Assembly (NCBI GenBank): GCA_964404765.1
Contig: CAYOLL010000011.1
Coordinates: forward strand, 773 to 64,772
Length of the DNA: 64,000 bases
Origin: an uncultured Gemmatimonadota bacterium
Lineage (GTDB): Bacteria > 4572-55
Direction of reading: 5' to 3'
Position numbers and translations under genes: made by a program. Shown piece by piece: positions 1 to 40,839 of the stretch. The notes under the pieces were generated by a model. The model was not told where the DNA came from and ran no database searches. It saw nothing but the letters and a program-made list of their open reading frames with translations. Within the stretch, counting starts at the first letter, position 1. Each line of letters starts with the position of its first letter.

Positions 1-2552
1 TCATCCTGCGCTCGGATTTTCTGGGCGAATGCACCGAATTTGAGGGCTTGCCGGAGGCAATCAACGAGGCCCAGTATTTAATTCCGCGCATGAGCCGTGT
101 TGAAAAAAATCGGGCAATTACCGGCCCTATCGGCGTCGGGAAGGCCAAGATAACCGATCGTTTGATGGAGCGGCTTATTACGGATTTAGGCGATAATCCC
201 GATGAACTGCCGATCATGCAACATGCTTTGATGCGCACTTGGGATTATTGGGGAACGAATAGCAACCCGGACGAGCCGATTGATGTCCATCACTACGAAG
301 CGATTGGCACAACACGTAGCGCCCTTTCGATTCACGCCGAAGAAGCTTTTGCCGAATTGTCGGATGACCGCACGCGAAAAAATGCTGAAAAAATATTTAA
401 ATGTTTAACGGATCATGGCGCCGATAACAGGGGTGTCCGTCGGCCCACAGCGGTAAAAGATGTTTGCGAATATTTTGATTTTACGGTGTCCGATGTTCAG
501 GAGGTCACCGATTGTTTTCGTCAGGTGGATCGCTCTTTTTTGACACCACCCGCTCATGTAACGCTGCAGCCGGAAACGGTGCTGGATATTTCTCATGAAA
601 GTCTGATGCGGGTTTGGGAACGGTTTATTCAGTGGGTCGCCGAAGAAGCGGAATCCGCCCAAATCTATTTGCGCCTGGCCGCCGCCGCCGCCATGTATCA
701 GGAAGGAAAAGCAGCTCTATGGCGCGATCCGGAACTGGAATTAGCATTAAGATGGCAGGAGCAACAACAACCGACCCGCGGCTGGGCTCAGCGCTACGAT
801 CCTTCGTTTGAACGGGCGGTTGTTTTTCTGGATCACAGCCGGAGCGAGCGTGATTTTGCCGTTGCTACCCAAGAATTGCGGCAAAAGCAGGAATTGCAAC
901 GATCACGTCTGCTTGCTGCCGGTATGAGTTTGGCCGCAGTCTTTTTTCTGCTGGGGCTCCTTTATACGATCAATCTTTATACCGAATCCGAGTCGAATAA
1001 ACGCGAAGCCGTTCGGCAGCAAGAAAAGGCTGTCAAGCAGGAACAAATTGCTGTTAAAGAACGTGAACGCGCTGAAAAAGAGACAAAAAAAGCGGTTGAG
1101 CAGGAAAATATTGCCGTTAGCGAGCGACAACGCGCGGAGACAGAAAAAGAGCGGGCCATCACGCAAGAAAAAATTGCCGTTTCCGAACGTGAACACGCGC
1201 GTATCCAAGAAAAAATAGCCATAAATGAAAGGCAACGGGCCGAGCAGCAAAAAGAAAATGCCCAGGCGCAAGAAAAAATTGCCGTAAATGAACGATTGCG
1301 CGCTGAAAAAGAAAAAGAGAAAGCGGACAAATTGAGTTTGCTATCCTTAGCCCGCGCACTGGCTTTTCAAGCAGTACGAGCCAAAGGTTCGGAAAAAGAC
1401 GATCTGCCGGCTTTGCTGGCCGTGCAGGCTTATCGGCTTAATAAACAAAATAACGGGTCTTTGTATCAACCCGACATATATCACGGACTTCTCAATACTT
1501 CACGCCGTCTAAAAAAAGACCGCCCTGATTTGCGTATTAATCACACCGACAATGTCCGCAGTCTTGCGGCGAGCAGCAAAGGAACGCTGATTATTTCCGC
1601 CGGAGAAGATGGCGTCTTAAAACAATGGCAGATCAATGCTTCCGATGCGCCGACAATTCTTATGCATGCTCCTCAAACGCGCTTTCGCGTTGTCGCCATT
1701 AGCCCTGGCGATCAATATGTGGCTGCCGGGGCATCGGACGGGACGGTGCTGATCAAAAGTCTTGCAAATTCAGAAAAAGAATTCTTATCTGTTAAAGCAC
1801 ATACTGCGGTAATAAGCGGCCTCGTATTTCTCAGTAATTCCCAATTTTTAACGACAAGCCACGACAGTACTATTCGTGTCTGGCAATTACCGGCTACGGG
1901 TCAAATGAAAGTTAAAAATGTTCAGACATTTTCCTGTGCCGGCAGCGTTTTGTGCATGGCGCTTAGTTCGGACCAAAAAACGCTGGCTGTTGGATTGGAT
2001 ACTAATGTAATTGAACTACACAGCATCCAATCGCCGGATCACAATAAAACACATCGCACGGTTAATGCGCGGCTGAGCGCACTCGAATTTAGTACGGACG
2101 GACAAAAGTTAGCGGCTGGATTTGCAGATGGCATTATTCGGGTTTGGGAAGCCAACCATCTCGATGGCGAGTCTGTAATGTTTTTGGGCCATGCCTCCGG
2201 CATCACCGATATTGACTTTAATGCTGATAGCAACTTAATGGCCTCCGGCAGTCTGGATCACACAATTCGACTCTGGTCTGCTAAAAGCCCGGAAGACGAG
2301 CCGGTCGTTTTGGAAGGACATGATAATTGGGTTCTATCTATTGTTTTTGCCGCTGATGACTTAACCTTAATTTCAGGGAGTGCGGATCAAACCGTCCGCA
2401 CCTGGATTACGCAGCCGGATATTTTGGCGCAGCAAATTTGTCAACAAGTCCAACGTAATTTGGTCCTGAAAGAATGGCAAAAATATATAGGCGAAAATAT
2501 TCCGTATGAAGCTTCTTGCCCGGATTATCCAATTGAAACTAACGATAAATGA
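1..2552 (+). CDS. STAND-type NTPase (C-terminal part) - TM helix - E/R/K-rich helical repeat - WD40 beta-propeller protein; 5' partial, gene continues upstream of the window
   Basis: Frame is open from base 3 (the ORF-track 'M' at 48 is a TTG). Motifs LPIMQHALMRTWDYW and DISHESLMRVWERFIQWV...LWRDPELELALRWQ match the linker module that follows NACHT/nSTAND NTPases in bacterial WD40 proteins. Single hydrophobic segment LAAGMSLAAVFFLLGLLYTINLY. About 8 copies of a 13-aa unit QEKIAVSERQRAE. C-terminal WD40 repeats (IRVWQ, IRVWEA, IRLWSA, VRTWI). Confidence 0.7.
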   Translation, partial: ILRSDFLGECTEFEGLPEAINEAQYLIPRMSRVEKNRAITGPIGVGKAKITDRLMERLITDLGDNPDELPIMQHALMRTWDYWGTNSNPDEPIDVHHYEAIGTTRSALSIHAEEAFAELSDDRTRKNAEKIFKCLTDHGADNRGVRRPTAVKDVCEYFDFTVSDVQEVTDCFRQVDRSFLTPPAHVTLQPETVLDISHESLMRVWERFIQWVAEEAESAQIYLRLAAAAAMYQEGKAALWRDPELELALRWQEQQQPTRGWAQRYDPSFERAVVFLDHSRSERDFAVATQELRQKQELQRSRLLAAGMSLAAVFFLLGLLYTINLYTESESNKREAVRQQEKAVKQEQIAVKERERAEKETKKAVEQENIAVSERQRAETEKERAITQEKIAVSEREHARIQEKIAINERQRAEQQKENAQAQEKIAVNERLRAEKEKEKADKLSLLSLARALAFQAVRAKGSEKDDLPALLAVQAYRLNKQNNGSLYQPDIYHGLLNTSRRLKKDRPDLRINHTDNVRSLAASSKGTLIISAGEDGVLKQWQINASDAPTILMHAPQTRFRVVAISPGDQYVAAGASDGTVLIKSLANSEKEFLSVKAHTAVISGLVFLSNSQFLTTSHDSTIRVWQLPATGQMKVKNVQTFSCAGSVLCMALSSDQKTLAVGLDTNVIELHSIQSPDHNKTHRTVNARLSALEFSTDGQKLAAGFADGIIRVWEANHLDGESVMFLGHASGITDIDFNADSNLMASGSLDHTIRLWSAKSPEDEPVVLEGHDNWVLSIVFAADDLTLISGSADQTVRTWITQPDILAQQICQQVQRNLVLKEWQKYIGENIPYEASCPDYPIETNDK
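1000..1330 (+). repeat. Intragenic imperfect 39-bp (13-codon) tandem repeats encoding QEKIAV(S/N)ER(Q/E)RAE units with variable spacers
   Basis: Visible at both DNA and protein level (caagaaaaaattgccgtt..gaacg..cgcgc). The composition is E/R/K/Q-rich, consistent with a long single alpha-helix or coiled-coil spacer. Confidence 0.7.
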
Positions 2553-2744
2553 CCTTGTATATTATCGTCAACAGTTGATCGGGCGTCATTTTGAAAGAAT
2601 CTTTTTTGACGATAGCACAATGCTAATTTAAAAAAAGATTCCTACTGAATGACACCTGTTGCAGTTGAAATAACTCCCGACGAACTTCTGCCGGGCTGCA
2701 CTAGTGCAACGCGGCGTAAGTTCGTGTGAACTTTTTTACGATCA

Positions 2745-2777
2745 AAACCTGACGGGTTTCCAAAACCCGTCAGGTTT
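2745..2777. other. Perfect 15-bp stem / 3-nt loop hairpin (AAACCTGACGGGTTT cca AAACCCGTCAGGTTT), no T-tract
   Basis: Exact inverted repeat read from the sequence, about 190 bp downstream of the stop of CDS 1. Confidence 0.5.
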
Positions 2778-2860
2778 GAGGTCACCCAAACGTATGCCGA
2801 ACACCACTAGTACAATAAATTTTAAACTATCAGACTTTTAAAAAATCGGAAATTTTAAAA

Positions 2861-5086
2861 ATGGCTGATTTGTTCATCTCTTATTCACGACGAAATAAAG
2901 ATTTTGTCCGAAAATTATATGATGCGCTTGCCAACCGGACGGATATAAAAGTATGGGTGGATTGGGAAGGCATTCCGCCCACGGCGGATTGGATGGCCGA
3001 AATTCATTCAGCCATCCAGCAAGCCAATACATTTGTATTTATTATCAGCCCGGATTCGATTGCCTCACCGGTATGCAAGCTGGAGCTGGAACATGCCGTT
3101 AAGCATAACAAACGCCTGATCCCGATCCTGCACATCTTGGATCCAAATGTGCCAAAAGTACTGGCGGATCTGAATTGGATTTACTTTCAGGATACCGATG
3201 ATTTCGAAGCATCGTTTCGGAAACTGGATGAGGCGATTCACACCGATCTGGACTGGGTTAAAATGCACACCCGTCTGCTGGTCAAAGCCATCGAGTGGGA
3301 TGCCAAGCACAAAGACGAGAGTTTTCTATTACGCGGGCGCGATTTGCAGGACGCCAATAGCTGGATGCGCGATAGTACAAACAAAGAACCTATCCCGGCT
3401 CAGCTCCATACCCAATACCTGATTGCCAGCCGTGATGCCGAATCCGTGCGGCAGAAGCGGACCATGGGTTTTATTGCCGTATCGTTAATTGTTGCGGTAA
3501 TTCTGGCCATTTGGGCGGGTTATCAATCGCGCGTAGCGTTTGCCCAACGCGAAATTGCCGAGCAAAAACGAATGGAAGCCGATCAGCAGCGCAACGAAGC
3601 GCTGGTCCAGCGGGAGGAAGCCAATAAACAGCGCAGCCTCGCCATCGAACGGCAGCGGGAAGCGGAATGGGAACGGCTGCGGGCGGATTCGTTGCGCCTG
3701 ACGGCCGAGGCCAATAGCCGGATCGCTCAGGAAAACAGCCAGATCGCAGAAAAAAGACGCATCGAGGCGGAAAACCAAAAGCAACGTGCGGAAATGGAAA
3801 AAGCGAAGGCTGACAGCCTGAAAGGCATCGCCGAGATTAACGAGCGCATTGCGATTTCGCAAAAACAAAAAGCCGACAGCCTGCGCTACCTGTCCGTCGC
3901 CAGAACCATTGCCATTCAGTCCTTGCGGCTGCAGGGCGATGACGCCAATTTAAACGCGCTGCTGGCATTACAGGCTTATCGTATGAGCACGGAAAAAGGC
4001 GGTTCGGCCATGGACCCGGATATGTACAACGCGCTCCGTTCCGGCATTAATCGCTTGCAAAATCCGCAGTACCATATTTTGCGCGGTCATACTGACGAAG
4101 TCCGGCAGGTCATCTATGACCCGGACGGACATTTTTTGCTAAGCTGCAGCGATGACGGCCAAATTTTTATCTGGACAATTGCGGACAGCATCGGTCGGCC
4201 GCAGGTCATTAAAAATCTGAACAATCGTCCGCGCGCACTGGCGCTCTCACCCGATAAGCAATTGCTGGCCGCCGGCTGCGTGGACGGACAGATTCTCTTG
4301 ATTGACTTGCGAAATCCCGATATGATAAGGCAGAGCTTTCCGGCCCATAACGGAATGATAACTTCGCTGGCTTTTTCAGCAGACGGAAAGATGCTAATCA
4401 GCGGCGGTTATGACGGCTATCTTAAAGGCTGGCGCAAAACCGAAGGCCTGATGCCGATTTTGCCTTCACCAATACAGGCCGAGCATATCCCGCTACGAAT
4501 TAACTCCATAGCAATCAATCGAGATGGCCGGTTTTTGGCGGCAGCCTGCGATAGCGGCCTTATTCACTTATTAGATAAGACCACTGGTGAAGTTACAAAG
4601 ATTAGAACGCTTCGGGCGACCCGACTGTCTTCCATTGCATTTAGCAATAATGATCAGTATCTTGCCGTTGGAACGACCGATGGGGCCGTCTTGGTCTGGC
4701 CAATAGCCGATCTTTCCGTAGAACCACTTGGCTTTTTTGGTCATTCTTCGGGAATTACGCAAGTTGTTTTTAGCCGTGACAGTCAATTTCTGGCTTCCGC
4801 CAGTTTTGATAAAACCATCCGTATCTGGAGCATGGAAAAACCGGAAGATCGCCCGATTGTTTTGGAAGGCCATGATTACTGGGTTTGGTCCATCAGCTTT
4901 AATAGCGACGGCTCAAAGCTAATCTCCGGCAGCACGGATCGGACGATCCGAATCTGGATAACCCAACCGGCCCGGATTGCCGAAGAAATCTGTCATTACG
5001 TCAGCCGCAATCTAACCAAGAAAGAGTGGCAGAGCTATGTCGGCCAGGATATTGATTACGAAAAAGGATGTCCGGAATTGCCTTAG
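2861..5086 (+). CDS. TIR domain - TM helix - helical E/R/K-rich region - WD40 repeat protein; paralogous in its C-terminal two thirds to CDS 1..2552
   Basis: N-terminal FISYSRRNKDFVRKLYDAL...SPVCKLELEHAV is a TIR_2-type domain with the S-x-(W/V)C-x-x-E-L glutamate motif. HTRLLVKAIEWD...FLLRGRDLQDANSWM linker module. TM segment MGFIAVSLIVAVILAIWAGY. WD40 repeats (IFIWT, IRIWSM, IRIWIT). The C-terminal ~45 aa (WITQP..ICxxVxRNLxxKEWQxYxGxxIxYExxCP) are conserved with CDS 1. Confidence 0.8.
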   Translation: MADLFISYSRRNKDFVRKLYDALANRTDIKVWVDWEGIPPTADWMAEIHSAIQQANTFVFIISPDSIASPVCKLELEHAVKHNKRLIPILHILDPNVPKVLADLNWIYFQDTDDFEASFRKLDEAIHTDLDWVKMHTRLLVKAIEWDAKHKDESFLLRGRDLQDANSWMRDSTNKEPIPAQLHTQYLIASRDAESVRQKRTMGFIAVSLIVAVILAIWAGYQSRVAFAQREIAEQKRMEADQQRNEALVQREEANKQRSLAIERQREAEWERLRADSLRLTAEANSRIAQENSQIAEKRRIEAENQKQRAEMEKAKADSLKGIAEINERIAISQKQKADSLRYLSVARTIAIQSLRLQGDDANLNALLALQAYRMSTEKGGSAMDPDMYNALRSGINRLQNPQYHILRGHTDEVRQVIYDPDGHFLLSCSDDGQIFIWTIADSIGRPQVIKNLNNRPRALALSPDKQLLAAGCVDGQILLIDLRNPDMIRQSFPAHNGMITSLAFSADGKMLISGGYDGYLKGWRKTEGLMPILPSPIQAEHIPLRINSIAINRDGRFLAAACDSGLIHLLDKTTGEVTKIRTLRATRLSSIAFSNNDQYLAVGTTDGAVLVWPIADLSVEPLGFFGHSSGITQVVFSRDSQFLASASFDKTIRIWSMEKPEDRPIVLEGHDYWVWSISFNSDGSKLISGSTDRTIRIWITQPARIAEEICHYVSRNLTKKEWQSYVGQDIDYEKGCPELP

Positions 5087-5386
5087 TGACTTCATAAAAC
5101 AACAAGCCACAAGTTTTTAACCGCAAAGTTCGCAGAGTCACGCAAAGAAAAAAATATCAGCGTAAATTTGCGTTAAACTTGGCGATCTTTGCGGTAACGG
5201 TTCTCGCGCCCAACGCAAATGTTTGGGACTAATTTTATGATCCAGACGCCCGGAACCTTGAGTAGAATGGCCTGCAAATCATAAATATCTTGTTGACAAG
5301 TAGTCAGTGGACATATTAACTTTATCGTGCCGCTGAAATACAACTCTGAATCGTTTTCATAAACCAAATCCGCAAGTACTCCGACT

Positions 5387-8300
5387 ATGAAAAACATACT
5401 TCCCGGTCTCATACAAAATAAATTCTTAGCAGGCTCACTGCAAGGCACTCTGCAGGCGACGGCTATGTTTATTGATTTGTCCGGCTTTACCGCCATGACC
5501 GAAGCCTTAATGCGTCATGGTGATGAAGGCGCGGAAATCATGTCCGGCATTCTCAATCGCATTTTTAATCCTATTGTAAACCATGTATACCGGAGCGGTG
5601 GGTTTATTTCCACCTTTGCCGGCGATGCCTTTACCGCAATCTTTCCCAAAAAAGAAGTCCGTCCATTCGATGTATTGGTTTGTGCCAAAAAAATCCAGGC
5701 GGCCTTAAAACGCTTTGGCCGGCAGCAGACCCGATTTGGTGAATTTGTAATCAAAGGTAAAATCGGCATCTCCTTTGGCCAGGTGGAATGGGGTATTGCC
5801 GGCAGTGAGCACAAAGCCTACTTCTTCCGCGGCGAGGCAGTTGATTGCTGTGCGAAAGCTGAACATTGCGCGGAAATTAATGATATTATTTATGATAGCG
5901 CCGTTCAGACCCAATGTCCTTCAAAGTATTTGACCGCACAATCCTTGCCAGATGGTTTTTTTCGACTGAAAACTGTGGAGGCTCTGACCAAAATCAAGCC
6001 AATAAAAAAGCCACAGGCCGGTCGGTTGCGACGTACTGTCGCGGCCCAATTCTTCCCCGAAGCGGTGATCGGCTTTGCCCAACAGGGCGAATTTCGCAAC
6101 GTGGCCACCGTCTTTATCTCCTTTGCCGGTATAACCGCCAAGGCCGAATTAGATGCGTTAGTTTCCATCGCCATCAACCAGACCGAAACTTATGGCGGCT
6201 ACTTCAATAAAATTGACTTTGGCGACAAAGGCGGCGTAATGGTGGTCGTTTTTGGTGCGCCGGTCGCCTACGAAAATAATACCGATCGCGCTCTGGATTT
6301 TATCCTGGCCTTGTGCCATGAAGTTGCGGATGCCGCCCGGCTTAAGTCGCTTAAATTAAGGGCGGGTATTACCTACGGCCTGGCTTATGCCGGTTTTATC
6401 GGCGGGCTCAAGCGCTGTGAGTACACAGTTATTGCGGACGTTGTCAATTTAGCCGCCCGGTTTATGGCCAAGGCCGAATTTGGCCAGATCTGGACTTCCG
6501 AAAGCATCGCCAAAAACGCCGGCAGCGTCTTCCAATTCGAGCCGTTGGGCGCGTTTGCATTCAAAGGCAAAAGTGACAATATCCCCGCCTATAGCCTGAC
6601 CGGCAAACAAATCCGGGCGACCCAGGCCTTTGGCGGCAAACTGGTCGGGCGCAGCGAGGAGTTACAGCAAATCGCCCAAGCCTTCGCCCCGCTGCCGGCC
6701 GGAAAATTCGGCGGCATCGTTTATGTTTATGGCGAGCCCGGCGTAGGCAAATCGCGCTTAGTCTACGAACTCAAGCAGCAGCATGCTGACTACTTATGGC
6801 TATATCTGCCGTGTGACGGCATTCAACGCAAGCCTTTCAATCCCTTTTTACACTGTTTCCGCGGCCTGTTTAATCAAGACCCGGAACAGAATCAGGCGGC
6901 CAACCGCGAACAATTTGAGCGGGTTTATCAACATCTGACGCAACAGATGTCTGATGAAACGCAGCGCGAAGAACTTAAACGGCTGCAACCTTTTTTGGCC
7001 GAATTTCTGGGCATTGTGTATGAAGACTCACTCTTTAGTCAATTAGACGCCAAACTGCGCTATGACAACACCTTATACGCTATTAAGGAAACCCTGAAAT
7101 CGGTCTGTGCCCTGCGTCCGCTGATCCTGGAACTGGAAGATTTGCAGTGGATTGACGCCGACTCCCGCGAAGCCTTTAAAGTGCTGTGCCGCAATATTGG
7201 CGATATTTCGCTTCTAATCGTCTGCACCAGCCGCTACTTAGATGATGAGAGCAAGCCGACGCTGCCCATTGAAGGCCCGACGCTGGCCATAGACTTGAAC
7301 TCGCTTAGTGAAGCCGGTATGACCGAATTGGCTGAAACCTTGCTGAACGGCCCTATTTCGCCTGAACTACGTCAAAATCTCAAGCAAAAAACGGAGGGCA
7401 ACCCGTTCTTCGTCGAACAAACCCTGCTATATTATCGCGAATTTGGCATTATCGCTAATGCTGATGAGGTCTGGCGTATTGTTAAGGACGAGGCGGTCAT
7501 TCCGTCCAGCATCAACGACCTGCTGATTTCGCGCATCGACCGCCTGTCCGAAAAATTGAAGGAAGCCGTCCAAACTGCGTCCGTGCTAGGCAGCGAGTTT
7601 GATATCCAACTCCTGCAAAAAGTACTCGGCCAAATCAGCAAAAGCTGGAAAACCGCCGAAGTTAGAACCCAATTGAAAGAAGCGGAAGGCGTTCAGGTCT
7701 GGTCGATCCTATCCGAACTGCGCGGCATCTTTGCCCACGCTCTGATGCACGATGTGGTCTACCACATGCAGTTGCGGTCACGGTTGCGGCTGATCCACCG
7801 CACCATCGCCCAAATCATTGAAAAGCTTTTCGAGGACGACAAAAAAGTATACGCCGACCTGGCCTATCACTACGAACGCGCCGAAGAGACCGCCAAAGCC
7901 ATCGACTACCTGCACAAAGCCGGCGACTACGCCCGCGAAAACTACCACAATCAAGCCGCTCTTGACTACTTTGACCGCTTGTTGACCCTCCTGCAAAAGC
8001 AAATAAATATGCCGCTAAATGATTTGACCGTGGAGCAGGTAACCGCCGATAACCACCCGCTGATTGAGATCTTTGTCGATGCGTCTTTAAAGCGCGGCAA
8101 TGTTTCGCAGACGGTGGGGAAAGTTGAACAGGCGCGCCAGCATTTGGAGATCGCGCGGAAACTGGCGGAAACGCTTGGTGATGAGGATCGAATTACCCGG
8201 GCGAATGGGGAAATGGGCAAGTGGTTTTATTTTCAGGGCAAATATCCGGAAGCGATGGCATGTTACCAAAAACAACTTGAGATAAGCAAACGCTTAGATA

Positions 8301-9289
8301 TTCAAAAACAAATAGCATTGGCTTTAGACAATATTGGTATTATTAATGTACTTCGTAACGAAACAAACAATGCAATTGCAAGTTTTAATGAGGAGTTATC
8401 GATTAGTCAAAAGCTTGACTATACATTTGGAGTTTGCCAAGCAATTTGTAACATGGGTCAAGCCTACCTGAGTTCAGGTGATTTCAGCAGAGCATCCGAA
8501 AAATATGAAGAACTTATTCGGATAAGCAAGCAAGCTGGAAATATTAATTTTAGTTCACTCGGCATTGGCAATTTGGGCATCGTTCATTATCATCATGGCG
8601 ACTATACCAAGGCGATTGAATGTTTTGAGGAAAAGTTACGCCTGAGTTATGAAACAGGCAACATGAATGAAATTTCCGCGGCAGTTGGCAATTTAGGCGT
8701 AATGTACGCGGAAATTGGCGATTATGACAAAGCGCTACGCAGCCATCAGCGCAAGTTATTCTTGAGTCAGGAATTAGGAAATCGGGGCGGTATTGCGCTC
8801 GCGTATGGTAATATTGCCAACACCCTTAAAGCAATGGGAACCTACACGGATGCCCGCAATTACTATGAGCAAGCCATAGTGATCCTTCGTGATCTTAAAA
8901 GCAATTATCATTTAGTCGAATTTTTAATCGAAAGCGCTGACTTGGAAACTCGTCAACAGAGCTGGCAAATTGCAATTCAACTCTTGGAAGAAGGTCTTAG
9001 TTTAGCTGAGCAGACCAAGCGAAATGATTATATTTTAAAAAGCCAATTACTGCGAGAAAAAATCGACTTTATCAAAGGTGACCGGAACTCAGCGCTTCAA
9101 AATATAATTGCTATGACAGGCACAGTTAAGTCTTTGTCTGTGTTGAGTGATATTTATTATGAACTATGGCAAATGACCGGTAAAGCGGAGTACGCGGATA
9201 AAGCCAAAGAAACATATCGTCAATTATTCATTGAAACCCCAAAGGCGGAATATAAGCGCCGTCTTCAAGAATTGGAGAAATCCTTATGA
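5387..9289 (+). CDS. Class III adenylate/guanylate cyclase (tandem CHD domains) - AAA ATPase - TPR repeat protein
   Basis: First CHD has FIDLSGFTAMTE...FAGDAFTAIF (metal-binding D and GD present). The second CHD lacks the first Asp (FISFAGIT), which suggests an intramolecular pseudo-heterodimer. Walker A YVYGEPGVGKSRLV. The C-terminal third is TPR-like repeats (YHNQAALDYFDRLL, GDYDKALRSHQRKL, etc.). The AC-AAA-TPR architecture is well known, e.g. mycobacterial Rv0386-like proteins. Confidence 0.85.
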   Translation: MKNILPGLIQNKFLAGSLQGTLQATAMFIDLSGFTAMTEALMRHGDEGAEIMSGILNRIFNPIVNHVYRSGGFISTFAGDAFTAIFPKKEVRPFDVLVCAKKIQAALKRFGRQQTRFGEFVIKGKIGISFGQVEWGIAGSEHKAYFFRGEAVDCCAKAEHCAEINDIIYDSAVQTQCPSKYLTAQSLPDGFFRLKTVEALTKIKPIKKPQAGRLRRTVAAQFFPEAVIGFAQQGEFRNVATVFISFAGITAKAELDALVSIAINQTETYGGYFNKIDFGDKGGVMVVVFGAPVAYENNTDRALDFILALCHEVADAARLKSLKLRAGITYGLAYAGFIGGLKRCEYTVIADVVNLAARFMAKAEFGQIWTSESIAKNAGSVFQFEPLGAFAFKGKSDNIPAYSLTGKQIRATQAFGGKLVGRSEELQQIAQAFAPLPAGKFGGIVYVYGEPGVGKSRLVYELKQQHADYLWLYLPCDGIQRKPFNPFLHCFRGLFNQDPEQNQAANREQFERVYQHLTQQMSDETQREELKRLQPFLAEFLGIVYEDSLFSQLDAKLRYDNTLYAIKETLKSVCALRPLILELEDLQWIDADSREAFKVLCRNIGDISLLIVCTSRYLDDESKPTLPIEGPTLAIDLNSLSEAGMTELAETLLNGPISPELRQNLKQKTEGNPFFVEQTLLYYREFGIIANADEVWRIVKDEAVIPSSINDLLISRIDRLSEKLKEAVQTASVLGSEFDIQLLQKVLGQISKSWKTAEVRTQLKEAEGVQVWSILSELRGIFAHALMHDVVYHMQLRSRLRLIHRTIAQIIEKLFEDDKKVYADLAYHYERAEETAKAIDYLHKAGDYARENYHNQAALDYFDRLLTLLQKQINMPLNDLTVEQVTADNHPLIEIFVDASLKRGNVSQTVGKVEQARQHLEIARKLAETLGDEDRITRANGEMGKWFYFQGKYPEAMACYQKQLEISKRLDIQKQIALALDNIGIINVLRNETNNAIASFNEELSISQKLDYTFGVCQAICNMGQAYLSSGDFSRASEKYEELIRISKQAGNINFSSLGIGNLGIVHYHHGDYTKAIECFEEKLRLSYETGNMNEISAAVGNLGVMYAEIGDYDKALRSHQRKLFLSQELGNRGGIALAYGNIANTLKAMGTYTDARNYYEQAIVILRDLKSNYHLVEFLIESADLETRQQSWQIAIQLLEEGLSLAEQTKRNDYILKSQLLREKIDFIKGDRNSALQNIIAMTGTVKSLSVLSDIYYELWQMTGKAEYADKAKETYRQLFIETPKAEYKRRLQELEKSL

Positions 9290-15529: not shown

Positions 15530-15604
15530 AGGTTACCTCGTTAAAAGATTAAAAACAGGTGGATAGACTATAGGCTTTTAGGCTTTTAGCCTGAATTGCT
15601 CTCA

Positions 15605-16015
15605 TTATAAACCGACAACGCCATTTTGGACTAAATCGGTTTTGAGTGTCTGCCAAAGTTCCTGCGCCGTTTTGACGGCTTTGTTCGCGTCAGTCGGCGT
15701 CGCGGCCGGCCAATTTCCCGGATAGCGGGATTCAACAGCCCATTCGGTTAACTCGGACAAATCCGGCTGGGTTGTGTGAACTGTCCAATGATGCGGCAAT
15801 AAATTTCGTAAAGCATCCAAGTCGTGGCTACGCGGAAAACCTGTCCCAATTGCAATCAACGACGTTTTCAGCATTTTTTCGGCGGCTTGCTGCGCCAACC
15901 AACAGATGTGGCGCGGCGGCGCGATAAAAGGCTGATTCAGCAATTGCTCCGCGGCGGATAAGTCTTCCTGCGCGTAAGTCAGCCAGTTTTTGGCTTCAGG
16001 CGTGAGGCTGTTCAT
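15605..16015 (-). CDS. HEPN domain protein (toxin-like partner of the adjacent MNT)
   Basis: 136 aa, helical, with an ESRYP-type R-x4-6-H-like motif. Overlaps the upstream nucleotidyltransferase gene by 20 nt, the canonical HEPN/MNT arrangement. Confidence 0.65.
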   Translation of the reverse strand: MNSLTPEAKNWLTYAQEDLSAAEQLLNQPFIAPPRHICWLAQQAAEKMLKTSLIAIGTGFPRSHDLDALRNLLPHHWTVHTTQPDLSELTEWAVESRYPGNWPAATPTDANKAVKTAQELWQTLKTDLVQNGVVGL

Positions 16016-16319
16016 ACAACACTTTCCCTTCCCGTAAGGCCGGGCCTAAAAATGAGCCGATTTGCGTTTTGCTTTCTTTAATTTCCTCCGGCGTTGTGAC
16101 AAAAATATCCTTGCTGATCGGCATATCCGTGAGCAGACGGCGAATGGCCACCGCGCTGTGCCGCTTGTTGACCGTATACGGCAAAACAACCAGCAAATCA
16201 ATATCGCTGTCCGGCCCGGCCACACCCCGCGCATACGAGCCAAACAAAATGATCTGAAGCGGCTGAACCTGCCGGACAATGCGGGTAATCATTTCATTGA
16301 GATAGGCTTCAGTGGGCAT
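15996..16319 (-). CDS. Minimal nucleotidyltransferase (MNT) of a HEPN/MNT pair
   Basis: LFGSYARGVAGPDSDIDLLVVL, the GS...DxD nucleotidyltransferase motif. Confidence 0.8.
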   Translation of the reverse strand: MPTEAYLNEMITRIVRQVQPLQIILFGSYARGVAGPDSDIDLLVVLPYTVNKRHSAVAIRRLLTDMPISKDIFVTTPEEIKESKTQIGSFLGPALREGKVLYEQPHA

Positions 16320-16637: not shown

Positions 16638-17849
16638 ATGACCAACCAAATTCATGCCGTTTTTCGCCAGGCTTATAACGATTTTGATGTCAAGCCGTTG
16701 CGCGGCGAATTGCTGCGCAAATTCTACGTGGACAGCTTTGCCAAAGACACCGCCGCCGATATCAAAACGACCCTGGACATTTCGACCGCCAACGAGAAGA
16801 TTCTGGTCGTCGGCCACCGCGGCTGCGGCAAATCGACCGTGCTCAGCAAGATTGCCGAGGAGTTGGATGACCAATACTTCGTCATCATGTTTTCGGCATT
16901 GGACGATCTGAACATGATGGACGTGCAAACGCTGGACCTGCTGCTGATCATGTACATGAAGATCACTGAAATCATGGATCGCCGTAAGATTCCCGACTCC
17001 CTCAGCAAATTTGAAAAATTCATGGGTTTTGCCAAAAACAAAGTCAGGGTTGATGATGTGAGCGTGGGATTCTTTAAAGCGCTGTCCTTTAAGCTTAAGG
17101 TGGAACACGAGTTCCGCGATATGGTGCGGATCGAACTGCGCAATCGCTTGGATGAATTGCAAAAAAAGATTGCTGAAGCCTGCGTCGACATTCAGCAAAA
17201 GACGAAGAAGGAAGCGCTGATCATCATTGACGACCTGGATAAGCTGGCCTCGGACACAGCCCGCAAGATTTTTATTGAGGACAATCCGCTGATTACCGTG
17301 CCGGAAGCGCGCACCGTCTTTACCTTCCCGCTGGAAAGCTATTACAGCAAAGACTTTGCCAAAGTCAACAACGCCTACGACAGCGTGATGATTCCGGTCG
17401 TCAACCTGCATGATGCGGCCCAAAACTACCGGCCGGATGTGTTGGACGAGCTCAAAAAGCTGATCTGGAAGCGTTTAGATAAGCAATACATCACCGATTC
17501 GGCACTAAAATTGCTCATTGATAGCAGTGGCGGCTTGCTGCGCGACCTGGTCAAGTTCATGCAGGATGCCTGCAAAAAAGCCATCCTGGCCCAAACCGAG
17601 CAAATCACGGAAGAAATCGCTGCCCAAGTTGTCGCCGAATTGGCTAACCAATACCGTCGCTGGTTTGATTTTCCAAAATATAGACAGGCCGCGGAACAGA
17701 TTGCCAAAACCCGTGAAAAAGAGGCCATTGCCCAGGACATTTTTATCGAAATGCTGCATCACATGTTCGCCCTGGAATATCGCTACCAAAAAAAGATTTG
17801 GTTCAATCTGCACCCGTGTTTGGCGGCGGCAATGAGCAATGAGCAATGA
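16638..17849 (+). CDS. P-loop NTPase (AAA-like), hypothetical
   Basis: Walker A LVVGHRGCGKSTVLSK; Walker B-like LIIIDDLDKLA; helical C-terminus. The stop codon lies inside a heptamer tandem repeat. Confidence 0.55.
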   Translation: MTNQIHAVFRQAYNDFDVKPLRGELLRKFYVDSFAKDTAADIKTTLDISTANEKILVVGHRGCGKSTVLSKIAEELDDQYFVIMFSALDDLNMMDVQTLDLLLIMYMKITEIMDRRKIPDSLSKFEKFMGFAKNKVRVDDVSVGFFKALSFKLKVEHEFRDMVRIELRNRLDELQKKIAEACVDIQQKTKKEALIIIDDLDKLASDTARKIFIEDNPLITVPEARTVFTFPLESYYSKDFAKVNNAYDSVMIPVVNLHDAAQNYRPDVLDELKKLIWKRLDKQYITDSALKLLIDSSGGLLRDLVKFMQDACKKAILAQTEQITEEIAAQVVAELANQYRRWFDFPKYRQAAEQIAKTREKEAIAQDIFIEMLHHMFALEYRYQKKIWFNLHPCLAAAMSNEQ

Positions 17850-17869
17850 ACAATGAACAATGAACAATG
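17829..17869. repeat. Heptanucleotide tandem repeat (GCAATGA x3, ACAATGA x2, ACAATG) containing the TGA stop of the upstream P-loop gene
   Basis: Read directly: gcaatgagcaatgagcaatgaacaatgaacaatgaacaatg. Confidence 0.9.
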
Positions 17870-17881
17870 CGGAGGAATCGA

Positions 17882-18226
17882 ATGACAACGATCACCATTC
17901 AACTGACCAATGACCGGTTTACTTTTATCAAGCGGCAACTGAAGGACGGCGGATATAAAGATATCAACCAAATTTTTAGCCGTATGATTGACCGTGAAAG
18001 AGAAATTCAGGCCATCAATCAAGTCATGGAAAGAAATGTTCGGGCCTATCTTGACAAAGATGAAAAACCGCCCGTCCCGTATGCCGATCGTCTTGACGAA
18101 GCGGAAAGCCTTTTGGATGAAGTGGAAGACGAGCCGGTTGACATGACCGCAGCAGAGTGGGCCAATATAAATGCCGAAATCACCGCCCAATATCAAGCGC
18201 GTAAAAATCGCCGGAAAACCTCATGA
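17882..18226 (+). CDS. parD: ParD-like antitoxin (type II TA)
   Basis: RBS GGAGGA before ATG 17882. MTTITIQLTNDRFTFIKRQLKDGGYKDINQIFSRMIDRERE resembles the ParD/CC2985 antitoxin family. Stop overlaps the ParE start (ATGA). Confidence 0.55.
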   Translation: MTTITIQLTNDRFTFIKRQLKDGGYKDINQIFSRMIDREREIQAINQVMERNVRAYLDKDEKPPVPYADRLDEAESLLDEVEDEPVDMTAAEWANINAEITAQYQARKNRRKTS

Positions 18227-18540
18227 AAATACGCATTAGCCAACATCGGGAGGCGCGAGTCGATCTAATCGCCATTTCCCTGCAAATAGCCGTTAAGCTG
18301 AAAAAACCGACGGCGAGTCATCGCTTTACCGAAAATGTCAACGAGACCCTGAATACGCTGATTATGATGCCTTACTTGGGTTCCGGATGCAAATTCAAAA
18401 AGACAAAATATGCCAAAATGCGTTCATGCCCGGTAAAAGACTTTCCTAATATCCTGATTTTTTATACTCCGATCAAAGATGGCATTGAAGTCTATCGGAT
18501 CGTTTGCAGCGGCCCCTGTTTGGATGCCGTTTTTGCCTGA
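18223..18540 (+). CDS. parE: ParE/RelE-family toxin
   Basis: 105 aa; the C-terminal NILIFYTPIKDGIEVYRIVCSG fits the ParE/RelE fold consensus (ILIFY...I.I.RI.HG). Confidence 0.55.
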   Translation: MKIRISQHREARVDLIAISLQIAVKLKKPTASHRFTENVNETLNTLIMMPYLGSGCKFKKTKYAKMRSCPVKDFPNILIFYTPIKDGIEVYRIVCSGPCLDAVFA

Positions 18541-18542
18541 AC

Positions 18543-18566
18543 ATAACTCCATAACTCCATAACTCC
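18543..18566. repeat. Octanucleotide tandem repeat ATAACTCC x3, directly after the parE stop and upstream of the NACHT gene
   Basis: Read directly. Confidence 0.9.
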
Positions 18567-18597
18567 AACACCGCCTTCCATTTTTGAGGCAACGACC

Positions 18598-32362: not shown

Positions 32363-34945
32363 TCAAAACCCCACCGTCACGCTGCCATACCCATTCCGCC
32401 CCGCCGCCGGGTAGTAATAGTTGCTGCCCGCCCAATCATCGTAATAGCCCGATGTTTCGTATTCCTTATCAAGCGCGTTATTCAGCCAGACCCTAAACGT
32501 CAGATCGCGCAGGCGGTTGACTTTGAGCGAAGCGTTCAGGTTGAGCACACCGTAGGGGTCAACTGTGCGCGTTTCGTCTTCCGTATTGTCCAAATACTGC
32601 TGGCCGGCATATTGATATTGGGCGGACAGGCTGACATTGCCCACAGCGGCCAATGTCCAATTCGCGGTAGCTCGCAGGTTGGCCAGTGCAGACGGAAATA
32701 AAGCAATGGTCTGGCCGTCCAACCGCTGCGGCTGCCCGTCCCACGAATAGGCGGTGAAATCCACAAACTCGTTCTGGCTGAAGGCGATGTTGCCGGATAA
32801 TTCCAACCCTAAGGGTCTCGCCTTTTGACCCTTAGGGTTTTTCCGTTGATCATCGTCAAACCCTAAGGGTTGAGAAACAAAACCCTTAGGGTTGATTTTG
32901 ATTGCCGTGCTCAATTCGAGGCCCTGGTGCAGCGTTTTGTCGGCGTTGCCGCGCACGGCCCGGCCTTCTTCCACTACCTGGCCGTAAGGTACCAGCTCGT
33001 TGCGGAAGTCCATGCGATACAGGTTTAGCTTGGCGTTCCAGCTCCACAGATTGCTAATCTGTGCTACACTAAGGCCGAGCTCGTAATCGTAAACTGTTTC
33101 GTGTTGGGTCAACGGGTCGCTCCATTCCACATAGCGAATCGAACCATCGGCCTTGTAGACGTTTTTGGATTTGGCAAAGAGCGGGTCCACGCCAAAATCG
33201 TCCGCGCCCTGCCATTGATCGAACATGTCGGCGTCGGTCGGCTCGCGCTGGCCGACGGAGAAATTGCCAAAGGCGCTGAGGCCGCTGGAAATTTCATAAT
33301 TCACGCCGAGCTTGGGATTGAAAAAAGTGTAGTCCACCACGTAATAATTGAGTTCTGCGCCGGAGAAATTACCGGCCGATTTTTGCTCCATCGTGCGCTT
33401 TTTGTATTGCAGTTGCAGCTCGGCCATTAGACGCACGGACGGGGTCAGGGCGTAGTTTTCGTGGGCGTAGACGGTGGCCCACCACTTTTTGCCGTCGTAG
33501 TCGTAATAGCGCAGATTCGGTTGCGCATCCGGCGGCAGATTGGACGCCCACTTGACCTCGCCCCAGTGCGACGACCAAAAATCGCTCAACTCGCCGCCGA
33601 TGGCCAATTGTCCGCGTCCGGCGCTGTGCCGCACATCTAAGCGCGGCAGCCAGCCGATTTGATCCTTGTCCACCCACTTTTGCCGCACAATGTCGAATTC
33701 GCTGATCGTTTGACCCGTGCCGCCCGGGTAATAATCGTAACCGTGTGCGACCAAATCCGCCCCGGTCTTGAACGTCTCGTAATAACCTTCGCCATGCACG
33801 TAAAACAAAGTGTTGCTCAAGGTCAGACCGTCGCGCAGCCGCCACTCGTGTTGCAACTGATATTGGGGCTGATTGAAATTGTCCGTGGTGGGCACATTGG
33901 CATGGTAATGCGTGGGATTGGCGCGATGATTCAGCTTCAAGTCGGCCTCGGCCACGGCGTCCCAGGCCGCGTCCAGATGAAACGGGCCGCTAAAGATGTT
34001 GACGCGCGTGGTCATGTTGGCGTCGAAGCGGGCCGCGCCGATAAAGTAAGCCCAGGCGTCCAGACCGGAACGCTCGCGATAGCCGTCAGTCAGCACTTTG
34101 GAATAGCGGCCATACACGGCGTAGGTGTTGTTGATCAGCCCGGAGCGGAACTGGGCCGTGTATTTGCGTGTGCCGTAACTGCCAAAACCGGTGGTCAGGC
34201 TCACGCCTTGCGCGCCGGTCAGATTGTCCGTGACAACGTTGACCGAGCCGCCAAAACCGCTCAGGCCGACCATGCCACCCACGCCACGCTGCACCTGAAT
34301 ATCCTGCACACTCTCGGCCACATCGGGCAAATCCACCCAATAGACTTGGTGATCTTCCGGGTCGTTGAGCGGCACGTTGTTGATCATGACATTGACGCGC
34401 TGCTGGCCAAAACCGCGAATCTTCAGATACGAATAGCCGATGCCGTTGCCCGATTCAGAATAGCTGAGCAGATTCGGCGTTTCCTGTAGCAGCATGGGGA
34501 TGTCCTGCCCCTGATTGGCCGCGGCAATACGCTCGTGATGCAGATTGGCAAAGGCCATAGGTGTGCGGCCGTCGGCCCGTGTGCCGGTGATGATCACTTC
34601 CTGGCCGGGCAGAATGGTCGGGGTTAATTGGAGCGTCAAAACGGCGCTTTGACTTACGGACACGCGCTGCTTGCCGACGCCGTAACCGAGATGACTGGCG
34701 CTGATCGTATATTGGCCGTCGAGGATATCAGCGATCTCGAATTGACCGGCGGCGTTGCTGACGGCTCCGCGGTTGAGCCCTTCCACCAGCACATTGACGC
34801 CGGGAATGATCGCACCGGAAACAGCGTCCGAAACCGTGCCGGAAACGGTAGCGCAATGGACAATGGACAATGGGCAATGGGCAATAAAAAGAAAAACGGC
34901 GAAAGTGCAGGTAAAAAATCGTAGATTAAAGATTGAAGATTGCAT
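32363..34945 (-). CDS. TonB-dependent receptor with N-terminal carboxypeptidase-regulatory-like domain
   Basis: CarboxypepD_reg-like TVSGTVSDAVSGAIIPGVNVLVEG...GQFEI; plug DIPMLLQETPNLLSYSESG...LKIRGF; barrel ending ...GSVTVGF. Start taken at the second Met (the ORF-track start is 34981). Confidence 0.85.
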   Translation of the reverse strand: MQSSIFNLRFFTCTFAVFLFIAHCPLSIVHCATVSGTVSDAVSGAIIPGVNVLVEGLNRGAVSNAAGQFEIADILDGQYTISASHLGYGVGKQRVSVSQSAVLTLQLTPTILPGQEVIITGTRADGRTPMAFANLHHERIAAANQGQDIPMLLQETPNLLSYSESGNGIGYSYLKIRGFGQQRVNVMINNVPLNDPEDHQVYWVDLPDVAESVQDIQVQRGVGGMVGLSGFGGSVNVVTDNLTGAQGVSLTTGFGSYGTRKYTAQFRSGLINNTYAVYGRYSKVLTDGYRERSGLDAWAYFIGAARFDANMTTRVNIFSGPFHLDAAWDAVAEADLKLNHRANPTHYHANVPTTDNFNQPQYQLQHEWRLRDGLTLSNTLFYVHGEGYYETFKTGADLVAHGYDYYPGGTGQTISEFDIVRQKWVDKDQIGWLPRLDVRHSAGRGQLAIGGELSDFWSSHWGEVKWASNLPPDAQPNLRYYDYDGKKWWATVYAHENYALTPSVRLMAELQLQYKKRTMEQKSAGNFSGAELNYYVVDYTFFNPKLGVNYEISSGLSAFGNFSVGQREPTDADMFDQWQGADDFGVDPLFAKSKNVYKADGSIRYVEWSDPLTQHETVYDYELGLSVAQISNLWSWNAKLNLYRMDFRNELVPYGQVVEEGRAVRGNADKTLHQGLELSTAIKINPKGFVSQPLGFDDDQRKNPKGQKARPLGLELSGNIAFSQNEFVDFTAYSWDGQPQRLDGQTIALFPSALANLRATANWTLAAVGNVSLSAQYQYAGQQYLDNTEDETRTVDPYGVLNLNASLKVNRLRDLTFRVWLNNALDKEYETSGYYDDWAGSNYYYPAAGRNGYGSVTVGF
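32800..32905. repeat. Four copies of palindrome CCCT(A/T)AGGGT(T) inserted in frame inside the TonB-receptor gene (encode ...NPKGFVSQPLGFDDDQRKNPKGQKARPLGLE...)
   Basis: The same palindrome family forms the MITE-like elements at 23085-24250 and 40185-40275. Confidence 0.75.
34854..34885. repeat. Heptamer tandem repeat (CAATGGA x2, CAATGGG x2) inside the 5' coding region (signal-peptide region) of the TonB receptor gene
   Basis: Read directly; on the coding strand it encodes IAHCPLSIVHC. Confidence 0.85.
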
Positions 34946-35250
34946 TGTTGCCTCCTTATAGAAATTGACGGAGGCAAACAAGCTGAAAGCGGATGGCTGG
35001 AAGCTGAGAGCTTGAATCCTGTTCCCTCCGCCGGTATGATCCGGATCAGGTTCGACGGGTGCGTTCTCAGCCCGCTTATGGCGGGCGCCCCGACAGGAAA
35101 TTTATGTGAATAACTGTTAGAATCAACCACACTTGCTAAGGTTAAAGTCGGTAAGAAATCAACAGTTTCAAGATCTTTGCAATCCTGAAGTGTAACCTTC
35201 GCAAGGGTACGCAACCTTTGGTCTATCCTTCATGTCGTCATATTTTCAAA

Positions 35251-38517: not shown

Positions 38518-38594
38518 GGGGTCGTAGTTCAGCTGGTTAGAACGCTGGCCTGTCAAGCCAGAGGTCGCGAGTTCAAGTCTCGTCGACCCCGCCA
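38518..38594 (+). tRNA. tRNA-Asp (GTC)
   Basis: Cloverleaf: acceptor GGGGTCG/CGACCCC, anticodon loop CTGTCAA, T-arm GCGAG TTCAAGT CTCGT, CCA encoded. Confidence 0.9.
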
Positions 38595-38604
38595 TTGAAT
38601 GAAA

Positions 38605-38637
38605 ATTGCAGAGGTCCAAAGCCTCTGCAATTTTTTA
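38605..38637 (+). terminator. Rho-independent terminator (stem ATTGCAGAGG / CCTCTGCAAT + T6)
   Basis: Follows tRNA-Asp. Confidence 0.75.
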
Positions 38638-38653
38638 CTATAAGGGGACTGAT

Positions 38654-38729
<76 letters not shown>

Positions 38730-38762
38730 TCCTCTTCTAACGGTAGGATTATTAAGTGGAAT

Positions 38763-38838
38763 GCTGGCGTAGCTCAGCTGGTAGAGCAGCTGATTCGTAA
38801 TCAGCAGGTCAACGGTTCAATTCCGCTCGCCAGCTCCA
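38763..38838 (+). tRNA. tRNA-Thr (CGT)
   Basis: Acceptor GCTGGCG/CGCCAGC, anticodon loop TTCGTAA, CCA encoded; one A-C mismatch in the T stem. Confidence 0.8.
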
Positions 38839-39065: not shown

Positions 39066-40163
39066 ATGGCAAACGTCATTTTGCCCGGTACATATATTAC
39101 CGTCCGGGATGAAGGTCTGATTAGCGCCGGCGCTGTTAGTGTCGGTAATGTTGGTGTGGTTGGTACTGCAGACAACGGCGATGTTAGCAAGCCTTATATT
39201 TTAAGCGGTTTTATGGCTGCCAGAGAAATATTCTCGCCGGTTCAGGAACAGGGCAAGGCGTCCAAGCCGGTAACCGGTAATTTACTTAGTACCTTAGAGC
39301 TTATTTTTGGTAATGGCGCTACCACTGTCTACGCCGTACGTGCCAAGGATGAAACAGCTGACGCCTATGCCGATGCGCTGGCCGCATTGGAGAAAGAAGT
39401 TGTTAACATCGTGCTGCTGGCCGGACAAGATGCCGGTAAAAGCGACATGGTGCTTAAACTTAAGAATCATTTGGATTTTACCGAAGGGATTCAGCGCGAA
39501 CGAGTCGGTGTTGTCGGCAGCAACGGCACAACGGACGCCAAGAAAATCAGCAATGGTATTGATCTCGTTACAAACGACAAAGGCCGCCTGATTTATGTCG
39601 CGCCCGGTCTAAAATTGAAGCGCCGCAATCCAGCCACCGGCGAAGAAACCGAGGATGTTCTTTCTGGGGCTTACACGGCAGCGGCTGTAGCCGGATTGAT
39701 TGCCTCTTTACCGGTTCAGACCAGCCCCACCAACAAGACCATCAATATCAGTGGATTGGGCGCCGAATTCAACCATGGCCAATTGGAAAGTCTTGTGACA
39801 AGCCGTGTACTAACGGTCGAAAAGCGGGAAGGTTTTCGGGTCGTTAAAGGCATCACCACTTCCACCAACACGGCCTGGGCCCAGGTGACAACACGGCGTA
39901 TTGTCGACAAAGCCATCTACGGCGTTCGATCCTCATGCAATCCCTACATTGGCAAGCTGAATAATGATCGTGTTCGTGGCGCAATGAAAGCCACAATAGA
40001 CGGCTTTTTGACCCGAATGGTTGAAGAAGAGGCACTTAAAACGTACAAGCTGGAAGTCAGCGCTACACGCGCCCAGGAAATTGCCGGGCAGTGTATGGTC
40101 AATATGACTTTGCAGCCCACGTTTAGCATTGATTACATCATGGTGACCATGTACTTAGGCTAA
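39066..40163 (+). CDS. Contractile tail sheath protein (phage / CIS-type)
   Basis: N-terminal VILPGTYITVRDEGLISAGAVSVGNVGVVGTADNG...FG fits the sheath N-terminal consensus (PGVY..E......GvsT...vG). The C-terminal ...NDRVRGAMKATIDGFLTRMVEE...CMVNMTLQPTFSIDYIMVTMYLG fits the sheath C-terminal domain. Confidence 0.7.
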   Translation: MANVILPGTYITVRDEGLISAGAVSVGNVGVVGTADNGDVSKPYILSGFMAAREIFSPVQEQGKASKPVTGNLLSTLELIFGNGATTVYAVRAKDETADAYADALAALEKEVVNIVLLAGQDAGKSDMVLKLKNHLDFTEGIQRERVGVVGSNGTTDAKKISNGIDLVTNDKGRLIYVAPGLKLKRRNPATGEETEDVLSGAYTAAAVAGLIASLPVQTSPTNKTINISGLGAEFNHGQLESLVTSRVLTVEKREGFRVVKGITTSTNTAWAQVTTRRIVDKAIYGVRSSCNPYIGKLNNDRVRGAMKATIDGFLTRMVEEEALKTYKLEVSATRAQEIAGQCMVNMTLQPTFSIDYIMVTMYLG

Positions 40164-40184
40164 TCATAAAGAAGAATATTCGTC

Positions 40185-40275
40185 TGACTAAACCCTAAGA
40201 GTTTTCCGTCAAACAGGGGCAAATACCTGAAAAAGTCTACAATTTCCAGGTAAAAAACCTTAGGATTTGGCCTTC
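40185..40275. repeat. Palindromic repeat element (AAACCCTAAGAGTTT ... AAAAACCTTAGGATTT) between the sheath and tube genes
   Basis: Same CCCTWAGGG family as 23085-24250. Confidence 0.6.
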
Positions 40276-40315
40276 GGTGGTGTTAAACGAATATTTGCAA
40301 TCATAAGGAGTTTTT

Positions 40316-40825: not shown

Positions 40826-40839
40826 TTTGTAAGGTCACG

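Follow-up and report, generated by a model that had tools for sequence, protein, structure and literature searches.

Tandem CAATGRR heptanucleotide arrays at gene ends and in a signal peptide of an uncultured Gemmatimonadota bacterium

A family of tandem heptanucleotide repeats with the unit CAATGRR occurs in a 64,000-nucleotide (nt) stretch of DNA from an uncultured Gemmatimonadota bacterium (contig CAYOLL010000011.1 of assembly GCA_964404765.1, positions 773 to 64,772 of the forward strand), referred to here at its full length as the window. The repeats form three arrays. One lies at the stop codon of a P-loop NTPase gene (site 1; 17830-17869, + strand), another at the stop codon of an ABC exporter gene (site 2; 56543-56563, - strand), and the third within the signal-peptide coding region of a TonB-dependent receptor gene (site 3; 34854-34885, + strand, reverse to the gene). 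The arrays are probably slippage-generated heptamer microsatellites that have been kept where little harm is done. They are best regarded as something other than dedicated switches, and any effect on expression would be a by-product. The two stop-codon arrays cannot act as C-terminal switches, and the receptor array could in principle switch its gene off. A preliminary description of the window had listed all three arrays as one CAATGRR family, with a TGA codon inside each of the first two, and in this it was correct; the site 2 array had been placed at 56548-56568, a slight offset from its true position.

The array at site 1 reads (CAATGAG)2(CAATGAA)3CAATG, or 5.7 units, and that at site 3 reads (CAATGGA)2(CAATGGG)2CAAT, or 4.6 units. 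At site 2 there are three units, CAATGGG, CAATGAG and CAATGGG. Tandem Repeats Finder (TRF) gives 96% matches for the array of 5.7 units, 96% for that of 4.6 units and 83% for a stretch it scores at 3.6 units. The two-unit pattern CAATGRRCAATGRR, allowing at most one mismatch, occurs 11 times in the window against 0.51 expected, and none of the dinucleotide-preserving shuffles reached 11. Five perfect runs of 2.5 or more copies occur at period 7 and one at period 8, compared with 0.01 each in shuffles, while the counts at periods 4 and 5 match the shuffle mean; enrichment is thus confined to periods 7 and 8. Single copies of CAATGRR are not enriched, with 25 on both strands against about 31 expected by our arithmetic from length. 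The unit variants are grouped in blocks (GAG GAG GAA GAA GAA at site 1; GGA GGA GGG GGG at site 3), as is expected from local duplication of adjacent units. A larger mobile element, such as one resembling a miniature inverted-repeat transposable element, was ruled out as the carrier of the repeats, as no flanking sequence is common to the three arrays.

The P-loop NTPase gene at site 1 (16638-17849, + strand; weak KAP/AAA and Sll1717-family matches) takes its C-terminal codons and stop (MSNEQ*) from the array, with the TGA at 17847-17849 falling in the third unit. Between the end of the array and the ATG (17882) of a 114-aa putative antitoxin (17871-18226 with its Shine-Dalgarno (SD) sequence, + strand) are 12 nt, which hold this SD, GGAGG (17871-17875), followed by 6 nt. 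A ParE-family toxin gene (18223-18540, + strand) comes next. The 114-aa open reading frame (ORF) has no family match; its position upstream of ParE, along with its own stop overlapping the ParE start, indicates that it is probably the antitoxin. When the junction was rebuilt in silico, an array of any length from three to eight units gave an NTPase of 403 aa ending in AAAMSNEQ* or AAAMNNEQ*, and the C-terminus stays constant with at least three units because CAATGAR holds a TGA in every frame. With all complete units removed and the trailing CAATG kept, the simulated NTPase reads in frame into the antitoxin ORF to give a product of 517 aa. A split NTPase-antitoxin gene was nevertheless rejected, given that such continuity is probably a one-in-three coincidence and that the second ORF carries an SD and an ATG of its own, as well as a stop overlapping the parE start, a common arrangement for antitoxin genes. 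A promoter or terminator role for the site 1 array was likewise rejected, as no promoter-like or terminator-like site is predicted there.

Two toxin-antitoxin modules stand beside the NTPase gene, namely a HEPN/nucleotidyltransferase pair (15605-16319) and ParE with its upstream partner (17882-18540). The parDE-like cassette is flanked by the CAATGAR array on one side and by an octamer array, (CATAACTC)3.2 (18542-18567, + strand), on the other; the latter begins 1 nt past the parE stop and ends 30 nt before an ATG at 18598. The HEPN pair also has an octamer array downstream, (CTAAAAGC)2.4 (15571-15589, - strand), which lies between the HEPN gene stop and the start of an SMC gene.

Site 2 separates two ABC exporter genes on the - strand: exporter gene 1 (ABC_membrane + ABC_tran; 56551-58374), whose TGA (56551-56553) lies in the second unit of the array, and its downstream partner, exporter gene 2 (54528-56486). 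Read along that strand, the TGA within the array is followed, after the array and a further 5 nt, by a second heptamer array, (CTAATTY)4 (AATTAGR x4 on the other strand; 56505-56532, - strand), and then by the SD AAGGGG (56492-56497) and the ATG at 56486. The spacer of 64 nt is nearly all repeat, and the CAATGRR array ends 56 nt before the ATG of exporter 2. Simulated loss or gain of one unit gave an exporter 1 of 606-613 aa compared with the present 607, a change of at most six residues. The altered residues lie past the last motif, DFQ, conserved with the ortholog in L126, and comparison with relatives shows that the conserved exporter C-terminus stops before the array-coded tail, which is itself not conserved. 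It had been proposed that a change in unit number would shift the reading frame and so extend or alter the C-termini at these two sites. Neither stop-codon array behaves in this way, the NTPase being fixed at 403 aa and the exporter varying only in its non-conserved tail; the expected frameshift does arise in simulation at the receptor.

The TonB-dependent receptor gene (32363-34945, - strand) encodes 860 aa with CarboxypepD_reg, Plug and β-barrel domains, and its start is marked by the SD GGAGG (34951-34955) and the ATG at 34943-34945. The NCBI record of this protein is also 860 aa long, consistent with the same start. On the gene strand, the site 3 array comprises two ATTGCCC units, two ATTGTCC units and a final ATTG. 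It codes for residues 21-31, IAHCPLSIVHC, which end shortly ahead of the first Pfam domain (start at residue 33-34). Its assignment to the signal-peptide coding part of the gene stands. Another heptamer array, CAATCTT CAATCTT TAATCTA (34922-34942, - strand), directly follows the ATG and encodes QSSIFNL. In simulation, the gain or loss of one or two units at site 3 shifts the frame and yields truncated products of 67-101 aa, whereas a change of three units keeps the frame. In an alignment with 119 homologues, the receptor has 35 residues before the conserved Gly of the first domain compared with a median of 28. This excess of seven residues corresponds to exactly three units, as would be expected if the signal peptide had undergone a fixed in-frame expansion near its cleavage site. 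A thiamine pyrophosphate (TPP) riboswitch aptamer (Rfam RF00059, 78.1 bits, E = 1e-13; 35006-35102, - strand) lies directly upstream of the gene, and the receptor SD can be masked by a UGCCUCC/GGAGGCA hairpin at about 34950-34978. Together, the riboswitch and the SD-sequestering helix suggest that the receptor probably serves as an outer-membrane transporter for a thiamine-related compound and that the riboswitch controls its translation.

All arrays of at least 2.9 units in the window are intergenic, at a stop codon or in a signal peptide, and none lies in a protein core, though about 88% of the window is ORF. Those beginning at 17830, 18542, 56505 and 56543 lie between genes or take in a stop codon, and both exceptions fall in one signal peptide. 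Perfect or near-perfect head-to-tail iteration, a length above the expectation from composition and a mostly intergenic location near the end of the upstream ORF also identify them as prokaryotic long simple sequence repeats, a class with units of 5-11 nt. From this pattern we infer that replication slippage made the arrays, in a genome that would be prone to slippage in steps of 7 nt, and that selection would have left them only where they do little harm: in spacers, in the last few C-terminal codons and in a signal peptide. The arrays of sites 1 and 2 fill the short spacer from the upstream stop to the SD of the next co-oriented gene. The forward unit CAATGAR, with its TGA and an overlapping ATGA, closes every frame within seven codons. 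As every frame is closed in this manner, the array supplies the upstream stop, and a change in unit number alters the length of the spacer and not the proteins. At site 3 the reverse unit, which is without a stop, instead encodes a hydrophobic heptad, I-A/V-H-C-P/S-L-S/P, and probably entered the gene as a three-unit in-frame expansion (+7 aa).

The spacer RNAs that carry the arrays fold less well than shuffles (z = +0.66, +1.77 and +1.12, the first two at sites 1 and 2). Structured RNA at the arrays was ruled out on this basis and by Rfam, which has no match at any of them. An unstructured spacer may be compatible with ribosome re-initiation at the downstream SD.

The SMC, receptor and ABC proteins each have one match of 100% identity in the protein collection, all on a single contig of 64,777 bp, and the next relatives are at 61-64% identity in Logan assemblies and at 56-62% in 'Candidatus Cloacimonetes bacterium 4572_55' (56% for SMC). 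The closest relatives of the SMC protein come from uncultured bacteria labelled Cloacimonetes 4572_55, Latescibacteria, KSB1 and Zixibacteria. No heptamer array was found in about 65 kb from the two nearest lineages (about 60% identity), the ABC-ABC junction included, where the spacers of the relatives are 146 and 130 nt long and unrelated in sequence to that of the window. The absence of the arrays from the nearest relatives implies that they are young or lineage-specific. Flank-anchored scans with a variable gap for sites 3 and 1 returned no matches among JGI metagenome contigs.

Beyond these relatives, a scan for three CAATGRR units across one genome per species (596 Gb) returned at least 120 stretches. 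We estimate by our own arithmetic that about 70 chance matches to a 2.7-unit pattern would arise in 596 Gb, such that short single matches are weak and arrays of at least 3.7 units are not due to chance. Among the matches listed, many are long homogeneous arrays of up to 17.7 units, and their hosts include cyanobacteria, Bacteroidota, Chloroflexota, Ignavibacteria, Planctomycetes and others. Period 7 dominates the tandem repeats in the 833 kb around the listed arrays, where 248 arrays were found, 136 of them with about 100 other units. By a crude classification of gene context, about 88% of the classifiable arrays among these matches lie outside long ORFs. In metagenome-assembled genomes (MAGs) of Ignavibacteria (L066) and Bacteroidota (L078), reverse CAATGRR arrays appear to give the hydrophobic heptads IVHCSLL and FIVHCSL to N-terminal segments resembling signal peptides, and at several other loci a CAATGRR array lies just 5' of a real start codon. 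Another case is found in the cox operon of Chloroflexota MAG278 (L073, JBFMFT010000156.1), where CAATGAA arrays occupy all three junctions of coxB-coxA-coxC-coxD (1935-1960, 3702-3727 and 4361-4406). The first two junctions share the stop-array-SD-ATG layout of the window. At the third, a forward CAATGAG unit contains the start codon of coxD, and reverse units encode the coxD N-terminus. At both the second and the third junction the forward array faces reverse units, and a hairpin is possible.

The unit itself is not globally privileged. In viral contigs, for which the counts are complete, unlike those of the genome scan, arrays of at least 3.7 units number 18 for CAATGRR compared with 10 for ACTAGRR, 10 for CATAGRR, 91 for ATCAGRR and 46 for AACTGRR, all controls of the same composition. 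Since two of the controls are commoner and two are at 10 against 18, a global privilege of CAATGRR was rejected; the unit is special by its recurrence inside one genome. A full-text literature search with dimers of four units and two reverse complements gave irrelevant matches only.

Heptamer repeats as a class have long been described from other bacteria. The short tandemly repeated repetitive (STRR) sequences of cyanobacteria, reportedly described by Mazel et al. in 1990, are tandem heptanucleotide arrays scattered in the genome, of unknown function. The suggested likeness of the window arrays to these repeats holds, as both are scattered tandem heptanucleotide arrays, although the units differ from the STRR units and the host is not a cyanobacterium; the genes of the window carry type IX secretion sorting domains. 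Another parallel is the TAACTGA repeat of marine Beggiatoaceae, some cyanobacteria and Bacteroidetes. A Maribeggiatoa genome holds 169 sets of this repeat, mostly intergenic and forward of a nearby start; 13 of the sets run over an upstream stop codon, which is possible since the forward unit has a stop in each frame (MacGregor 2015, PMC4679880). Reverse sets are tolerated only at protein ends, two Cyanothece strains differ by indels in 7-nt steps, and the repeats have been proposed as cis-acting elements at the RNA level (PMC4679880). The window shares with this system a genome-specific dominant heptamer in short (two to six units), mostly intergenic arrays. It also shares a forward unit that closes three frames, overlaps the upstream stop and precedes the next gene (a property here of CAATGAR, not of CAATGGR), the restriction of reverse units to ORF beginnings and ends, the presence of other heptamers in the same spacer, and singletons that are not enriched. 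It differs in the unit, CAATGRR, whose GGR variants are without a stop codon, and in the host, which is uncultured and has 'Candidatus Cloacimonetes bacterium 4572_55' as its nearest named relative. Furthermore, a canonical SD (GGAGG or AAGGGG) lies between array and ATG in the window, whereas SDs are rare in the repeat-bearing intergenic regions of Maribeggiatoa; the few-nt distance to the start without an SD that is typical there is replaced here by 12 nt at site 1 and 56 nt at site 2.

The heptamers GGGAATC of Xanthomonas and GGGGA(C/T)T of Nostoc are 89-93% intergenic and situated near the upstream ORF end, and the length of their arrays differs between close relatives (Rehm et al. 2015, PMC4692102). 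Polymerase slippage is given as an origin of such repeats by Mrazek et al. (2007), as cited in PMC4692102. These heptamers and the long simple sequence repeats of Mrazek share with CAATGRR an over-representation relative to other unit lengths and an intergenic proportion of about 90%, near the upstream ORF end. The Xanthomonas heptamers lie on average 28 nt from their 5' neighbouring ORF (PMC4692102), which contradicts the earlier impression that an association with gene termini is unusual. The Xanthomonas and Nostoc units are G-rich and quadruplex-capable, whereas CAATGRR is not G-rich and its spacers fold poorly. A reporter study in Nostoc, available as a preprint, suggests, without establishing, a regulatory effect of heptamers near start codons (bioRxiv 10.1101/2022.06.06.494920). 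In every structural respect, the window arrays fit this known class of heptamer repeats, and they differ from it in unit, host lineage and the ordinary SDs downstream.

Several observations weigh against a purely slippage-based origin. Across the 13 CAATGRR units, variation occurs only at positions 6 and 7, and of the five heptamer arrays present in 64 kb, three have the CAATG core in common but no common flanks, a recurrence that slippage from random seeds leaves unexplained. The cox arrays could reflect selection of the CAATGAA unit at operon junctions. Finally, the absence of an orientation bias in other genomes (among the matches listed: co-directional forward 19, reverse 25, convergent 23, divergent 19) is approximate, since it was obtained with a crude longest-ORF caller that misclassified site 1 of the window.

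A rival view treats the arrays as leader or intercistronic elements that act in cis and are under selection; their unstructured RNA would tune translational coupling or bind a single-strand RNA-binding protein (S1, a Csp or a CsrA-like protein). The arrays at sites 1 and 2 are forward and start in the upstream stop, the SD follows directly at site 1 and past the second array at site 2, their RNA is less structured than that of shuffles, and one unit family recurs in the genome. The CAATGAA unit and its layout also recur in the Chloroflexota operon, and for other heptamers there is a published hypothesis with partial reporter data (PMC4679880; bioRxiv 10.1101/2022.06.06.494920). However, 141 arrays of other genomes show no orientation preference among the matches listed, with 23 lying between convergent genes, and the nearest relatives have no array at the same junction. 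The third array of the window is reverse and within a coding region, the canonical SDs make a special initiation mechanism unnecessary, and a binding protein is known for no such repeat. A selected leader element is possible but doubtful.

Site 3 invites a second explanation, in which the array is a contingency locus: a slip of one or two units would turn the surface receptor, which phages or colicins are likely to target, off and on in a subpopulation. The simulated truncations and the restoration of the frame by three units agree with it, as do the nature of the product, an outer-membrane receptor, and the second heptamer array directly after the ATG. Phase variation classically involves repeats near the 5' end of TonB-dependent receptor genes, exemplified by the CCAA repeats in the Haemophilus hgp genes. 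Known heptamer switches have many more units, with a dozen or more in HMW1A, whereas the receptor array has only 4.6 in two 2-unit blocks with a longest perfect tract of 20 nt. In addition, the gene is already under a TPP riboswitch, the length excess of exactly three units is that of a fixed in-frame insertion, and no variant sequences were present in the collections searched (the protein collection and JGI metagenome contigs). Such switching is unlikely on this evidence. The contingency loci of host-adapted pathogens, which operate by slipped-strand mispairing (review PMC11868660), share with the window the presence, early in the coding sequence of a surface receptor, of a repeat whose unit length is not divisible by three, so that unit changes shift the frame; the low repeat number sets the window apart, as do its stop-codon arrays, which cannot shift the frame of any protein.

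A broader proposal takes CAATGRR as a lineage-specific, sequence-selected system of an FCB-related bacterium (Fibrobacteres-Chlorobi-Bacteroidetes). In forward orientation the repeat would be a junction element that provides a frame-independent stop and an unstructured track for re-initiation; reversed, it would be a slippage switch of a riboswitch-controlled receptor of the thiamine type. This proposal is quite improbable as it stands. If true, the recurrence of one unit family would reflect a sequence-specific mechanism of spreading or binding.

The omega repressor of pSM19035 binds arrays of 7-bp heptads with the consensus (A/T)ATCAC(A/T), and a comparable operator at site 1, to which the antitoxin of the neighbouring parDE-like module would bind, would account for 5.7 heptads ending 12 nt before the putative antitoxin gene. 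Such an operator is very improbable: the same heptad also occurs between two ABC genes and inside a receptor gene, the array and its surroundings hold no promoter-like site, the spacer of just 32 nt after the NTPase suggests co-transcription, the putative antitoxin is without a family assignment, and the unit is unlike the omega consensus.

Slippage-generated microsatellites tolerated at harmless positions hence remain the preferred explanation. Further repeats named in the preliminary description, AATTAGR x4, the CATAACTC array downstream of parE and a C15 homopolymer, are real. The homopolymer (63937-63951; G15 when read along the gene) precedes the start of an LVIVD-repeat gene by about 160 nt and is a stronger candidate for slippage than the heptamers, with a length that short-read assembly leaves uncertain. 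The same gene has a repeat, (TTCATTCAA)2 (63789-63806, - strand), directly 5' of its SD AGGAGGAGG and ATG (63775-63777). This repeat reads TTGAATGAA on the + strand and holds GAATGAA, one base off CAATGAA. Two adjoining LVIVD-repeat genes with FlgD-Ig and type IX secretion C-terminal domains span 60050-63777 (- strand), and a 126-nt periodicity detected by TRF at 60389-61217 is a coding repeat of the first of them.

Elsewhere in the window, a row of three large genes of signalling or defence type occupies 48-9289 and encodes a STAND NTPase-WD40 protein, a TIR-WD40 protein and an adenylate/guanylate cyclase-AAA-TPR protein (1300 aa). A phage-tail-sheath-like gene, followed by several unassigned ORFs and an ORF of 2111 aa, extends over 39066-51299 and may represent a contractile injection system. 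Three tRNA genes are clustered just upstream of it, at 38518-38835.

Genome-specific dominant heptamers have been reported for decades from cyanobacteria, Beggiatoaceae and Xanthomonas, with no accepted mechanism of spread or function. The puzzle of one recurring unit per genome is met in other genomes too, and the literature offers no answer there. With the window, the heptamer microsatellites gain a new unit and one more host lineage. The window also serves as a worked example of how the sequence of a unit determines where its arrays can reside: CAATGAR closes all three frames, and only units of this kind can overlap a gene end. By the same logic, entry into coding sequence takes the form of a three-unit in-frame expansion in a signal peptide. 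For annotation, heptamer arrays that span stop codons should not be counted as phase-variable C-termini. The receptor array, albeit with a low prior, is a candidate for slippage switching in an environmental bacterium.

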